Shown here: in pieces, positions 716-8,765 of the stretch
How positions within the stretch are numbered: position 1 is the stretch's first letter
Layout of the letters: each line of letters begins with the position of its first letter
NCBI RefSeq assembly: GCF_964213995.1
Contig: NW_027590137.1
Span: 806,001-870,000 of the forward strand
From: Mustelus asterias
Lineage: Eukaryota
DNA length: 64,000 nt
Direction: 5' to 3'
Notes under the pieces: generated by a model
Database searches by the model: none
Told to the model about the DNA's origin: nothing
The model's input: the letters and a program-made list of their open reading frames with translations, nothing else
Translations under genes and position numbers: made by a program

Positions 716-930
716 TAACAAACAAAGAACAATACAGCACAGGAACAGGCCCTTCGGCCCTCCAAGCCCGCGCCGCTCCCCGGTCCAGGATTGAATCCTG
801 AATCCAGGATCCCCGCCCAATTTTCCAGCCTATCTACATACCAATATCCTATCCACCGAGCTGTCCCTCACAGCTACGATGCTTTGTTCATTACAACCTA
901 TTAACTTACCCCCACCCCCCCATTCCAGAC

Positions 931-1059
931 CATGTGATCTCCAGGGAGAGGCGAAAACCCAGAGTGAAAAACCCCAGGGCCAATATGGGGAAAAAAAATC
1001 TGGGAAATTCCTCTCCGACCCCCTGAGGCGATCGAAACGAGTCCAGGAGATCACAATGG
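931..1059 (-). other. multi-stem RNA structure module in the CR1 3' UTR
   Basis: Nested complementary pairs 934-942/1046-1054, 945-951/1010-1016, 958-963/999-1004 and 972-976/986-990. Confidence 0.7.
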
Positions 1060-1224
1060 CCCCGATCGGAAAATGCTTCCCAACCCTAGTCATTTCCACT
1101 TCCACGAACACCATATGAATTCCCTGCCCCCGAGACAGGTTCCCAACTATCCGCAGTCTCACTCTGTACTGGCACCAGCAAGATGATCATAGAATGAAGC
1201 CTTGAAACGAGAAACCAGGAACAA

Positions 1225-4200
1225 TTAGCCCGCGCCGCTCCCTGGTCCAAACTCGACCACTCTTTTGTATCCCTCCATTCCCACTCCGTTCATATAGCTG
1301 TCTAGATAAGTCTTAAACGTTCCCAGTGTGTCCGCCTCCACCACCTTGCCCGGCAACACATTCCAGGCCCCCACGACCCTCTGTGTGAAATATGTCCTTC
1401 TGATATCTGTGTTAAACCTCCCCCCCTTCACCTTGAACCTATGACCCCTCGTGAACGTCACCACCGACCCGGGGAAAAGCTTCCCACCGTTCACCCTATC
1501 GATGCCTTTCATAATTTTATACACCTCTATTAAGTCTCCCCTCATCCTCCGTCTTTCCAAGGAGAACAACCCCAGTTTCCCCAATCTCTCCTCATAACCA
1601 AGCCCCTCCATACCAGGCAACATCCTGGTAAACCTCCTCTGTACTCTCTCCAAAGCCTCCACGTCCTTCTGGTAGTGTGGCGACCAGAACTGGACGCAGT
1701 ATTCCAAATGCGGCCGAACCAACGTTCTATACATCTGCAACATCAGACCCCAACTTTTATACTCTATGCCCCGTCCTATAAAGGCAAGCATGCCATATGC
1801 CTTCTTCACCACCTTCTCCACCTGTGACGTCACCTTCAAAGATCTGTGGACTTGCACACCCAGGTCCCTCTGCGTCTCTACACCCTTTATGGTTCTTCCA
1901 TTTATCGTGTAGCTCCTCCCTACATTATTCCCACCAAAATGCATCACTTCGCATTTATCAGGATTGAACTCCATCTGCCATTTCCTTGCCCAAATTTCCA
2001 GCCTATCTATATCCTTCTGTAGCCTCTGACAATGTTCCTCACTATCTGCAAGTCCTGCCAGTTTTGTGTCGTCCGCAAACTTACTGATCACCCCAGTTAC
2101 TCCTTCTTCCAGATCATTTATATAAATCACAAACAGCAGAGGTCCCAATACAGAGCCCTGCGGTACACCACTAGTCACAGGCCTCCAGCCGGAAAAAGAC
2201 CCTTCCACTACCACCCTCTATCTTCTGTGACCAAGCCAGTTCTCCACCCATCTAGCCACCTCCCCCTTTATCCCATGGGATCCAACCTTTTTCACTAGCC
2301 TACCATGAGGGACTTTGTCAAATGCTTTACTAAAGTCCATATAGACAACATCCACGGCCCTTCCTTCGTCAACCATTTTGGTCACTTCTTCAAAAAACAC
2401 CACCAGGTTCGTGAGGCATGACCTCCCTCTCACAAAACCATGTTGACTATCGTTAATGAGTTTATTCCTTTCTAAATGCGCATACATCCTATCTTTAAGA
2501 ATCTTCTCCAACAACTTCCCCACCACGGACGTCAAGCTCACCGGCCTATAATTACCCGGGTTATCCTTCCTACCCTTCTTAAATAACGGGACCACATTGG
2601 CTATCCTCCAATCCTCTGGGACCTCACCTGTGTCCAGTGACGAGACAAAGATTTGCGTCAGAGGCCCAACGATTTCACCTCTCGTCTCCCTGAGCAGCCT
2701 TGGATAGATTCCATCAGGCCCTGGGGATTTGTCAGTCTTTATATTCTCTAACAAACCTAACACTTCCTCCTTTGTAATGGAGATTTTCTCCAACGGTTCA
2801 ACACTCCCCTCCGAGACACTCCCAGTCAACACATCCCTCTCCTTAGTGAATACCGACGCAAAGTATTCATTTAGGATCTCCCCTACCTCTTTGGGCTCCA
2901 AGCATAAGTCCCCACTTTTGTCCCTGAGAGGTCCGATTTTTTCCCTAACAACCCTTTTGTTCCTAACGTATGAATAAAATGCCTTGGCATTCTCCTTAAT
3001 CCTGTCTGCCAAGAACATTTCGTGACCCCTTTTTGCTCTTCTAATTCCCCGTTTGAGTATTTTCCTACTTTCATTATACTCCTCCAGAGCTCCCTCCGTT
3101 TTTAGCTGCTTGGACCTAACATACGCCTCTCTTTTCCTTTTGACCAGTCCCTCAATTTCCCTGGTTATCAACGGTTCTCTAATCCTACCCTTCCTATCCT
3201 TCTTTTTTACAGGCACATGCTTGTCCTGTAGCCCTAACAACCGTTCCTTAAAAGACTGCCACATACCAGATGTGGATTTACCCTCAAACAGCCTCTCCCA
3301 ATCAAGAGCTGCCAATTTCTGCCTGATCCCACTAAAGTTAGCCTTCCCCCAATCCAACACCTTACCCTTGGGACACCACTCATCCTTTTCCATCACTATC
3401 CTAAAGCTAACAGAATTGTGGTCACTATTTGCCACATGTTCCCCAACCAAAACTTTGAAGACCTGACCGGGCTCATTCCCCAGCACCAGGTCCAGTATAG
3501 CCCCCTCTCTAGTTGGGCTGTCCACATATTGTTCCAACGAACCCTCCTGTACACATATTACAAATGCCTCACCATCCAGAGTCCCTGCCCTCAGCGATTT
3601 CCAGTCTATACCAGGGAAATTGAAGTCTCCCACTACAACAACCCTATATTTCCTGCACCTATCCAGTATCTCCTGACATATCCATTCTTCCACTTCCCTT
3701 GGGCTGTTGGGGGGCCTGTAGTACACCCCCAACATAGTGACTGCGCCTTTCCTGTTTCTAAGCTCCACCCAGAGTGACTCGCTACACGACTCCTCCGAAT
3801 TGTCCTCCCTCTGCACCGCTGTAATATGCTCTCCAACCAATACCGCTACTCCCCCACCTCTTTTGGCCCCTCCTCTGTCTCGCCTAAAACACTTGTACCC
3901 TGGAATATTCAGCTGCCAGTCCTGTCCCTCTTTCAACCAAGTCTCTGTCACCGCAACCACATCCAAATTCCTCGTGCGCATTAAGGCCCCAAGTTCGTCT
4001 GTTTTACCTGCTACGCTCCTTGCATTGAAGTATAAGCACTCCAGACCCCCAGGCTCAGTGAGGTCGTCCTCCCCCAGAGTGCTCTTCTTCTTTGCCAGCC
4101 TTGTCCCAGCCCCAAGCTCGTCCCCAGCCACCACACTTATAGACCTAATATTTTGATCCCCACCCCCCTGCCATACTAGTTTAAACCCCCCCGAACTGCA
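1225..4200 (-). pseudogene. CR1 ORF2 (APE endonuclease + reverse transcriptase) with one in-frame stop
   Basis: [44 protein letters not shown] single TAG at 2218-2220 (HRR*RVVVEG, where other copies have Q) splits the two track ORFs, which share one frame. Confidence 0.95.
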
Positions 4201-5192
4201 TTAGCAAAGCTCCCAGCCAGGATATTTGTGCCCTTCCAACTTAGTTGTGACCCCTCCCTCTTGTACAGGTGCCATCCTCTCCTGAAAACCTCCCATTGGT
4301 CTATGAAAATAAAGCCCTCCCTCCTGGACCAGTCCTTTAGCCAGGCATTCATTTGAACCAACTCCCTATTCTTATCCTCACTGGCACGAGGCATTGGGAG
4401 CAGCCCAGAGATGGCCACCCTAGTGACCCTACTTTTTAACCTATTTCCCAACTCCCTGAATTGCTCTCTTAGGACCCCCCTACTCTTCCTATCTACGTCA
4501 TTTCCACCAATGTGTATAATGACATCCGTTTCTTTATCTTCCCCTTTTAAAATGCCTCCTATCCGCTCGGAGACATCCGTGACCCCAGCACCAGGTAGGC
4601 AGACTACCATCCTGGAGTCCCGTTCGCCCCCACAGAATCGCCTGTCTGTCCCTCTAACTGACGCATCCCCCACCACTATCGCTCTCCTAACCCCTCTCTT
4701 CCCTTTCCGGGCCACAGAGCCTGACTGTGTGCCAGTGACCTGGTCACTGTGTCTTACCCCTGGAGAGGCACACTCCTCCACACTATCTAAAACAATATAC
4801 CTGTTTTGGAGTGGGACAACCACAGGTGACCCTTCTTCTAACTGTCCACTCCCCTCCCCTCTCACACCTGTCACCAAGCCCTTCCTATTTTGAGACACCT
4901 CTGGAGACCTCCCTTGTACTTTACCCTTCTGCCCTTTACTCCTCCTAACTGTGACCCACGTGTCTTCCTCCCGATGCCCCGGTGTAACTAGTTGCCTATA
5001 ACTGCTGTCAATTTTTCTCCCATTTTCCCTGACTAGGCTAAGGTCAGCGATCTGCAGCTCCAGTTCCCTAACACGGTCCCTCAAGAGCTGCAGTTCCACG
5101 CACCTGGCACATATGTGAACCTCTGGAAAGCCCGGTGTTTGCAGGAACTCCCACATCCCACATCGGAAGCACTGAACTGGCCGATCACTCAT
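4176..5192 (-). CDS. CR1 ORF1p: zinc finger/leucine zipper + SGNH-esterase-like domain
   Basis: 338 aa. CxxC...CxxC, heptad leucines (LLRDRVRELELQIADL), VVGDA, CLPGA and HIGGND blocks. Confidence 0.92.
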   Translation of the reverse strand: MSDRPVQCFRCGMWEFLQTPGFPEVHICARCVELQLLRDRVRELELQIADLSLVRENGRKIDSSYRQLVTPGHREEDTWVTVRRSKGQKGKVQGRSPEVSQNRKGLVTGVRGEGSGQLEEGSPVVVPLQNRYIVLDSVEECASPGVRHSDQVTGTQSGSVARKGKRGVRRAIVVGDASVRGTDRRFCGGERDSRMVVCLPGAGVTDVSERIGGILKGEDKETDVIIHIGGNDVDRKSRGVLREQFRELGNRLKSRVTRVAISGLLPMPRASEDKNRELVQMNAWLKDWSRREGFIFIDQWEVFRRGWHLYKREGSQLSWKGTNILAGSFANAVRGGLN

Positions 5193-5589
5193 ACCTGCCC
5201 TTATCCTTTATAGGGTTGGGTAAAAAATAACTAGCCTTGCCTTGCCCTTTTAGCCCAAGCCCTGTGAGCCAAAGCCCTTATAATGCACACTCTGCTACCC
5301 ACTCACTCCACTGCCCGCTCCCGACGCTGCCCGCTGTATAGTGCAGACGGCTTTTTATGCTCCCGACGAACCCCCCAAGTAACTGCCTTTTATACTAAGA
5401 CTCAACCTCCCAGAATCCCCTTCAGCTGACCTCATTTCCTCAATTCAAAACCCTGAAAAAAGCCCGCGAAATATACTAGGAATACCCTTAAATGAATAAA
5501 TGAATAATTAAATCACTTCTTAGCTTACTCTCAGCACTCCTGCTAAGACTCTCTCCCCCACTCTCACTCCAGTTAAACAAAGAGTTAAC

Positions 5590-6290: not shown

Positions 6291-8490
6291 CCATAGAACC
6301 ATAGAAAATTACAGCTCAGAAACAGGCCTTTTGGCCCTTCTTGTCTGTGCCGAACCATTTTATGCCTAGTCCCACTGACCTGCACTTGGACCATATCCCT
6401 CCACACCCCTCTCATCCATGAACCCGTCCAAGTTTTTCTTAAATGTTAAAAGTGACCCCGCATTTACCACTTTATCCGGCAGCTCATTCCACACTCCCAC
6501 CACTCTCTGCGTGAAGAAGCCCCCCCTAATATTCCCTTTAAACTTTTCTCCTTTCACCCTTAACCCATGCCCTCTGGTTTTTTTCTCCCCTAGCTTCAGC
6601 GGAAAAAGCCTGCTTGCATTCACTCTATCTATACCCATCAAAATCTTATACACCTCTATCAAATCTCCCCTCAATCTTCTACGCTCCAGGGAATAAAGTC
6701 CCATCCTATTCAATCTCTCTCTGTAACTCAGCTTCTCAAGTCCCGGCAACATCCTTGTGAACCTTCTCTGCACTCTTTCAATCTTATTTACATCCTTCCT
6801 GTAACTAGGTGACCAAAACTGTACACAATACTCCAAATTCGGCCTCACCAATGCCTTATATAACCTTACCATAACACTCCAACTTTTATACTCGATACTC
6901 CAATTTATAAAGGCCAATGTACCAAAGGCACTCTTTACGACCCTATCCACCTGTGACGTCACTTTTAGGGAACTCTGTACCTGTATTCCCAGATCCCTCT
7001 GTTCAACTGCACTCTTCAGAGTCCTACCATTTACCCTGTACGTTCTTCTTTGGTTTGTCCTTCCAAAGTGCAATATCTCACACTTGTCTGCGTTAAATTC
7101 CATTTGCCATTTTTCAGCCCATTTTTCTAGTTGGTCCAAATCCCTCTGCAAGCTTTGAAAACCTTCCTCACTGCCCACTACACCTCCAATCTTTGTATCA
7201 TCAGCAAACTTGCTGATCCAATTGACCACATTATCATCCAGATCATTGATATAGATGACAAACAACAATGGACCCAACACCGATCCCTGCGGCACACCAC
7301 TAGTCACAGGCCTCCACTCAGAGAAGCAATCCTCCACAACCACTCTCTGGCTTCTTCCATTGAGCCAGTGTCTTATCCAATTTACTACCTCCCCATGTAT
7401 ACCCAGAGACTGAACCTTCCTAACTAACCTCCCATGAGGGACCTTGTCAAAGGCCTTGCTGAAATCCAGGTAGACAACACCCACTGCCTTCCCTTCATCC
7501 ACTTTCCTGGTAACCTCCTCGAAAAACTCTAATAGATTGGTCAAACATGACCTACCACGCACAAAGCCATGTTGACTCTCCCTAATAAGTCCCTGTCTAT
7601 CCAAATATTTGTAGATCCTATCCCTTATCACACCTTCCAATAACTTGCCCACCACCGACGTCAAACTTACTGACCGATAATTTCCCGGATTTCTTTTGGA
7701 ACCTTTTTTAAACAATGGAACAACATGAGCCACCCTCCAATCATCCGGCACCTCCCCCGTGAATACTGACATTTTAAATATGTCTGCCAGGGCCCCTGCA
7801 AGTTCAACACTAGCTTCCCTCAAGGTCCGTGGGAATACCCTGTCCGGTCTTGGGGATTTATCCACTCTGATTTGCCTCAAGACAGCGAGCACCTCCTCCC
7901 CTTTAATCTGTAAAGGTTCCATGGCCTCCCTACCAGTTTGCCCTATTTCCGTAGACTCCATGCCCATTTCCTCAGTAAATACAGATGCAAAAAAACCATT
8001 TAGTATCTCCCCATCTCTTTTGGTTCCATACACAGTGTACCACTCTGGTCTTCAAGAGGACCAATTTTATCCCTCACTATCCTTTTGCTCCTAACATACC
8101 TATAGAAGCTCTTTGGATTTTCCTTCACTCTGTCTGCCAAAGCAACCTCATGTCTTCTTTTAGCCCTCCTGATTTCCCTCTTAAGTAGCTTCTTGCACTT
8201 TTTATACTCCTCGAGCATCTGATGTGTTCCTTGCTGCCTGTACATTTCATACAACTTCCTCTTAATCAGTGTTACAATCTCCCTCGAGAACCAAGGTTCC
8301 TTATTCCTATTTACTTTGCCTTTAATCCTGACAGGAACATACAAACTCTGCACTCTCAAAATTTCTCCTTTGAAGGCCTCCCACTTTCCATTTACATCCT
8401 TACCAGAGAACAGCCTGTGCCAAGCCACACTTCCCAGATCCCTTCTCATTTCATCAAATTTGGCCTTTTTCCTGTTCAGAACTTCAACCC
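6291..8490 (-). mobile_element. 5'-truncated CR1 LINE
   Basis: RT ORF 6366-8033 plus 8000-8449 (one frameshift); tail ccatagaaccatagaa and terminal stem-loop. Confidence 0.95.
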
Positions 8491-8765
8491 GAGAACTTCA
8501 ACCATGTTAAATTCTAACATGTGACTGGAGTTTTATTTTAAAAATTAATGTTGGATTCACCTACATGCTTGTGGAAGCTGCATAGCTGGCAGGAATTGTC
8601 TGAACTAAGAATTTCTTCTATGAATTTGATCAGTTGGAGGACATTATATTCTGTCAAATCTGGCTCAAGAATAAGGTTGATTGCTCAGTTCAAGTAAGAA
8701 GGAAAGCTATTGGCTTGCAGCAAGTGTCTTTTCGAACCAGGATATCTTGTATTAACCTTATTCAG

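Follow-up and report, generated by a model that had tools for sequence, protein, structure and literature searches.

The window analyzed here is a 64,000-nucleotide (nt) stretch of the Mustelus asterias genome (3.68 Gb), positions 806,001 to 870,000 of contig NW_027590137.1. It carries on its minus strand a full-length CR1 long interspersed nuclear element (LINE) whose first open reading frame (ORF1) ends at a putative -1 ribosomal frameshift site (Table 1). ORF1 encodes a CxxC zinc finger, a coiled-coil-like stretch, an SGNH esterase fold and a C-terminal Gly-Leu-Asn before the stop; the zinc finger and coiled coil were called by reading the family alignment. ORF1 matches Lipase_GDSL_2 in Pfam (E = 1.2e-08), and the ORF1 family profile matches the ZfL2-1 esterase structure 4C1B (E = 4.9e-35). 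The ORF2 endonuclease matches L1 endonuclease structures with an E value of about 0.003. With its predicted zinc finger/SGNH esterase ORF1 and its ORF2 of apurinic/apyrimidinic endonuclease (APE) plus a reverse transcriptase (RT), the element fits a canonical CR1 LINE. It shares this domain content and its abundance in elasmobranchs with the esterase-bearing vertebrate elements described as type IVB, CR1 subgroup 7 (PMC4120745) and as Canonical-CR1 (PMC13343379).

In the window copy, ORF1 ends GGT (4187-4185) TTA AAC TAG. The ORF2 frame lies at -1 relative to ORF1; it is open from 4200, following a stop at 4203-4201, and reads TTT AAA CTA GTA TGG across the junction. This arrangement, put forward in an initial annotation of the locus, was confirmed on the minus strand, as were a G-run shortly downstream and the placement of the first in-frame ORF2 ATG (3981-3979) inside the endonuclease. 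That ATG falls 17 codons past the Tyr of the YFNARS endonuclease motif, which begins at 4032, and lies beyond the residues aligning to L1 endonuclease residues 13-14 onward. The annotation had overlooked a nearer ATG (4174-4172), which begins 1 nt past the ORF1 stop and opens a mini-ORF. If both tRNAs slip in tandem, as in the standard model, the ribosome would never decode the -1-frame Phe and Lys, and the junction would read Gly-Leu-Asn followed by Leu-Val-Trp-Gln; the junction peptide proposed earlier, GL/FKLVWQGG, was therefore wrong. The window holds one match to TTTAAACTAR where 0.23 are expected, and 21 of 100 shuffled sequences contain one. A single site is thus within chance alone, and the evidence for it must come from its conservation.

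Table 1. Features of the CR1 element and its ORF1-ORF2 junction, in window coordinates.
Feature	Position	Strand	Remarks
CR1 LINE, full length	~5584-720	minus	young, high-copy subfamily
ORF1	5192-4176	minus	338 aa; ATG at 5192, stop TAG at 4178-4176
Slippery heptamer T TTA AAC	4185-4179	minus	X XXY YYZ phase in the ORF1 frame
ORF1 stop TAG	4176..4178	minus	abuts the heptamer; relatives have TAG, TAA or TGA here
G tract GGCAGGGGGGTGGGG	4172-4158	minus	6 nt past the heptamer; candidate stimulator
Mini-ORF	4145..4174	minus	9 codons; out of frame with ORF2; not conserved
Linker, slip site to endonuclease	4033..4178	minus	-1 frame; no stop, no Met
ORF2 frame	1225..4200	minus	APE endonuclease, then RT; Pfam Exo_endo_phos, RVT_1
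3' untranslated region (UTR), long variant	720..1224	minus	ends with GGGCCGAAGGGCC hairpin (760-748) and pyrimidine-rich tail

For the window subfamily, we searched the genome with a junction-flank pattern in which the heptamer and the stop were left as N. The pattern matched 1,553 genomic places, and TTTAAAC was present in 97 of the first 100 listed. All 40 scored junction matches are about 100% identical, and hence the subfamily is young. In 37 of 40 members of the cluster the endonuclease is spaced at the same 153 nt, which means that the -1 phase does not stem from an indel private to the window copy. Loci of other subfamilies were chosen by endonuclease-start or esterase motifs and never by the heptamer. 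In all, 170 loci gave 112 junctions anchored on flanking protein motifs, or 104 after removal of duplicates. The alignment check proposed in the initial annotation came out in its favor: 86 of the 104 junctions place the endonuclease in the -1 frame, and TTTAAAC is present in 88 of the 93 with an intact ORF1 end. Outside the window subfamily the -1 frame is used in 47 of 64 junctions (the other frames in 11 and 6). Linker lengths range from 132 to 366 nt with the phase kept, and 10 of the 12 lengths found in at least two copies of a cluster are multiples of three. Among 55 copies outside the window subfamily, the 30 codons past the ORF1 stop are free of stops in the -1 frame in 41, in frame 0 in 17 and in the +1 frame in 7. 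Ahead of the heptamer, the -1 frame lacks stops in 17 of the 55, which places the opening of the frame at the site. We use these counts because the 16 representatives referred to below were selected as open in the -1 frame, which makes their lack of -1-frame stops circular. Judged by its conservation, the putative slip signal is a real, lineage-wide feature of canonical CR1s.

The codon test was applied to 9 representatives (11 tried, 2 dropped for damage) with identities of 37-88% (mean 52%); shorter codon windows retained 9 and 11 of the 11 shark representatives, and longer ones 5 of 11 because of damaged copies. The terminal ORF1 Leu is encoded by TTA and the terminal Asn by AAC in all 9, while the other 13 columns conserved among the final 60 codons of ORF1 all vary synonymously. 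Across the first 40 endonuclease codons, a single one of 12 conserved columns is invariant, and that one lies within the search pattern. The codon preceding the heptamer is GGT, GCT, GAT, CGT or AGT: its amino acid varies, and it ends in T in 16 of 16 representatives. These alignments show that, across canonical CR1 lineages, constraint at the heptamer acts on nucleotides and not only on amino acids. Around the ORF1 stop, no in-frame start codon is conserved among the 16 representatives. The linker contains a Met in 5 of them, at unrelated positions, and 8 have no in-frame ATG, CTG, GTG, TTG or ACG from -5 to +15 codons; the first ATG lies at offset 11 in only 4.

Homologous ORF1 proteins extend this pattern beyond the genome, with 28 of 36, named ray and shark proteins among them, ending in Leu-Asn (LN). 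We then took the best 150 representatives of more distant ORF1s, of which 149 were new and 87 carry the esterase DGxH motif, many of their clusters being related. Among these 87, 42 end in LN (including named proteins of a snake, turtles, a lizard, a swallow and an eel), 8 in QGN and 3 in KN, and for 41 of the 42 the genetic code offers a T-ending codon for the residue preceding LN. The QGN ending led to the prediction, before the DNA was retrieved, of a G GGA AAC heptamer. DNA was examined for 49 loci, and the ORF1 end was obtained in 29. Three have G GGA AAC (L171, L172 and L174, the last with one additional codon between heptamer and stop) and a fourth, L176, has G TTA AAC; in L171 and L176, the two of these that reach the endonuclease, the -1 frame is open to it. 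Eight metagenome loci, of bird or amniote type, have TTTAAAC followed by a stop; in four of these the frame runs open into the endonuclease, and in another of the eight, L208, the endonuclease is in phase yet stops interrupt the frame. A further 3 are damaged copies that retain TTTAAAC, 4 end at the locus edge and 10 lack a heptamer. "Bird-type" here denotes similarity to the swallow ORF1. Related loci were found in neither the viral-contig nor the genome-contig collection. Two observations concern single proteins. ORF1s P0117 and P0181 end in SKN, which would suit the slippery word A AAA AAC, and P0018, an LN-ending CR1 ORF1 on a 4-kb contig, is labelled 'SGNH/GDSL hydrolase [Pseudomonas aeruginosa]' and is probably fish DNA within a bacterial assembly.

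The 10 heptamer-less loci have a different junction. ORF1 ends in TGA followed by C in 9 of them (L175, L177, L178, L181, L182, L199, L200, L211 and L219; TGA CTAG in L175 and L177), and the endonuclease is in frame 0 in all 5 in which it was found. TGA-C is a leaky stop context. A protein with a match to the ZfL2-1 esterase (E = 1e-79) shares 92-94% identity with L175 and L177 at the ORF1 end, and L175 and L182 have an ORF2 without an early AUG. Since ORF1 and ORF2 are in frame across a single TGA with a leaky C context, the arrangement suggests that these L2-like esterase LINEs may join the two by readthrough. In a tree of endonucleases, 3 in-frame elements are split from all 14 slippery-site elements with support of 100/100, and the window element falls with the bird-type elements, apart from the L2-like ones; the tree comprises 17 rows, with 5 short rows omitted, and includes neither a named reference nor the RT.

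Because the slippery word is either kept or swapped for other slippery words, and ORF2 has no usable start, the copying enzyme of these elements is likely made by slippage, and we consider -1 ribosomal frameshifting yielding an ORF1-ORF2 fusion to be the probable mechanism. Ribosomes translating ORF1 would move back by one base on U UUA AAC, immediately ahead of the stop, and those that slip would make an ORF1-linker-endonuclease-RT fusion. Most ribosomes would terminate and release ORF1p alone, leaving ORF1p in excess over the fusion. The proposal of the initial annotation that a -1 shift joins ORF1 to an AUG-less ORF2 thus gains good comparative support from codon invariance, phase, frame opening and heptamer swaps.

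The stimulator that it named, a G-quadruplex or a hairpin, did not fare as well; what is conserved is the G tract itself. At third positions +17, +20 and +26 of the -1 frame, G occurs in 15 of 15, 14 of 15 and 13 of 15 representatives, respectively, and does so across differing amino acids, as against a share of about 34% for GGG in Gly codons. The G4Hunter profile peaks at the G tract (1.64, versus at most 1.27 elsewhere in the region). The likeliest candidate stimulator is this conserved tract, 6-20 nt downstream, acting with the stop codon next to it; the tract may work as a G-quadruplex or as a protein-binding site. G-quadruplexes are able to stimulate -1 shifting (PMC3919603). In the window subfamily only, the G-tract segment (4178-4158) and the 3' tail (750-720) can pair over ~19 bp (-22.3 kcal/mol, top 0.7% of windows).

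Several points weigh against frameshifting at this site. A slippery heptamer lacking a stimulator usually shifts poorly, and we found no conserved stem-loop 3' of the heptamer when 80 nt were folded in 16 representatives (z from -2.29 to +1.32). A G-quadruplex lowers the folding energy in 6 of the 16, mostly as a two-tier structure. We rejected 3'-tail pairing with the G tract as a stimulator: a 10 x 10 swap test, for which 18 full-length elements were condensed to 10 rows (two of them from one family), gave no excess of cognate pairs (p = 0.53), and the best pairing partners of the tract in other elements are scattered. Out-of-phase junctions (18 of 104) and altered heptamers (5 of 93) also occur, which we read as decay of dead copies; the junction counts are not independent, the subfamilies being related. 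Among the 87 distant ORF1s, 34 end in neither LN, GN nor KN, a figure that includes L2-like and damaged proteins. No annotated long fusion protein was present among 5,452 candidates, which is weak evidence. Finally, human L1 shows AUG-independent initiation (PMC5009743), and some canonical CR1s have no ORF1 (PMC13343379), so the fusion is not obligatory.

These last two points favor the main rival, an AUG-independent, L1-like reinitiation in which ribosomes terminate at the ORF1 stop and restart ORF2 at a nearby non-AUG codon, the conserved letters forming a reinitiation signal. Reinitiation is the favored route for L1 and SART1 (PMC2881922; PMC10275272) and, like slippage, predicts a linker that is open from near the stop. 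It accounts for the open linker but not for the logic of the heptamer, since it predicts neither the concerted change of TTT to GGG in the first triplet nor the fixed wobble T of an otherwise variable codon. It also finds no conserved AUG or near-cognate codon to work from: the nearest AUG is in frame in 2 of 16 representatives, and the GTG at 4134, raised in the initial annotation as a possible ORF2 start, is in frame here but absent from other subfamilies. On balance we regard reinitiation as unlikely. We also discarded the idea that an indel in the G-run brings the ATG past the stop into frame, as near-identical copies have the same spacing as the window.

Two further explanations seem to us very improbable, and about equally so. 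In one, ORF2 begins inside ORF1, by internal entry or on a spliced or internal transcript, and the conserved letters are dual-coding, encoding Leu-Asn in one frame and Phe-Lys-Leu in the other. The -1 frame is indeed open 15-180 nt upstream in most representatives, and one contig guessed to be RNA-derived omits 3945-4158; this contig, however, has non-canonical ends, and the omission would delete the start of the endonuclease (RNA runs X1-X4 provide contigs only, with shares of 0.10-0.18, and are uninformative on expression or splicing). Against this reading, a -1-frame stop lies one codon ahead of the heptamer in L105, L112 and L114, whose -1 frame begins to be open 3 nt ahead of the heptamer and continues so over 85-122 codons. 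One of 16 representatives has an ATG upstream, and the first residue changes from Phe to Gly or Val in L171, L172 and L176. The other explanation retains a -1 shift but reaches it by a different route, either stop-induced slippage of a single tRNA while the A site holds the stop codon, or slippage of the polymerase, altering the RNA by one base. The heptamer is almost always followed at once by the stop, and a search for RNA structure found none, both as this route would have it. Against it, the first triplet is conserved and changes in concert, which argues for slippage of both tRNAs, and L174 has an extra codon before its stop; runs of three are, in addition, short for polymerase slippage. 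Frameshifting by tandem slippage therefore remains our preferred reading.

As proposed, the CR1 junction resembles viral gag-pol sites in that a structural ORF finishes with an X XXY YYZ heptamer and the polymerase ORF lies in the -1 frame, and its words are those preferred at known viral and retroelement -1 sites (infectious bronchitis virus U_UUA_AAC, G_GGA_AAC, equine arteritis virus G_UUA, and PEG10; PMC5009743). It differs from them in that neither a pseudoknot nor a hairpin was found (pseudoknots were not modelled), in its G tract and adjacent stop, and in belonging to a non-LTR retrotransposon. A protease domain was not detected in CR1, so the fusion would probably remain uncleaved. TRE5-A and TRE3-A of Dictyostelium are APE-type non-LTR elements said to need a -1 frameshift for ORF2 (PMC5911963); they differ in host kingdom and in ORF1. 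Human L1 and silkworm SART1 likewise have a bicistronic LINE RNA in which ORF2 translation depends on that of ORF1 (PMC2881922), but they are thought to reinitiate rather than to fuse, unlike the route proposed for CR1. For Paramecium LINEs, a +1 shift, reinitiation or readthrough has been suggested (PMC5405496). ZfL2-1 and the L2-like LINEs have a homologous esterase ORF1 (4C1B), yet their ORF2 lies in frame 0 past UGA-C and they lack the heptamer; Kajikawa et al. are said to have proposed stop-codon suppression for ZfL2-1 in 2012. The original CR1 descriptions reportedly noted ORFs that overlap or lie close together, and frameshifting may be mentioned in them. Our literature searches, whose scope left out those older descriptions, turned up no proposal of -1 frameshifting in CR1 (PMC4245944, PMC4255032 and PMC11835228 included). 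The word "frameshift" is absent from the main text of PMC4120745 and PMC13343379, as are "overlap" and "translation" from that of the latter, and "CR1" does not occur in the first 300,000 characters of PMC5009743.

The remaining features of the locus concern the history of the element. The CR1 lies within a fragment of an older LINE, with a possible 4-bp target duplication (GTTA), and its 5' edge at 5581-5584 is common to 9 of 29 other near-identical copies and to the relative L255. Matches in L001 (C648) and L003 (C96) run on into the window flank and are duplicates of the same insertion, which therefore sits in a segmental duplicate or an assembly haplotig. The RT of the window copy carries a premature TAG (2220-2218) where L255 has Gln. 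Compared with the ZfL2-1 esterase triad (PMC3905857), the subfamily has GDA in place of GDS (~4667) and EGSQLS in place of DGLHLN (4260-4240), by which it differs from the canonical vertebrate CR1s; because the triad is altered in a recently active subfamily, esterase activity is probably dispensable for it. About 450 nt of additional 3' UTR (1224-776, minus strand) are flanked by two copies of GGGAGCGGCGCGGGC, and relatives L226 and L255 have a short UTR instead. The junction of ORF2 with the long UTR is common to about 30 other places in the genome, and the long-UTR form is possibly a recombinant sub-lineage. A 3' hairpin and a short repeat tail without poly(A) are found in the window (760-720) and at the 3' ends of 18 full-length elements. 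The window also holds a second CR1, from a different subfamily (6366-8500, minus strand), with an open RT frame of 561 aa and a tail resembling those of L227 and L229; no ORF1 junction was found in it.

How ORF2p is produced from bicistronic LINE RNAs is an open question, for which the usual answer is reinitiation. In most vertebrates the dominant retrotransposons are CR1-group elements, which account for 22-34% of the genomes of sharks and rays (PMC13343379). As far as its sequence allows, the site appears to work like a viral gag-pol -1 site placed in a canonical CR1 LINE without a recognised RNA structure, that is, a coronavirus-type slip site with a possibly unusual G-tract stimulator. A start at the first ATG would clip the endonuclease, and the annotation of ORF2 therefore needs correcting. 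More tentatively, and with somewhat less than even confidence, we suggest that CR1s from shark to bird, and more distant relatives, make the fusion by means of a G tract and stop rather than a pseudoknot while their L2 sisters do so by UGA-C readthrough, so that the mode of recoding would be interchangeable and the esterase-endonuclease-RT product shared. If frameshifting is indeed the route, the CR1 polymerase would be a fusion protein that carries the esterase.

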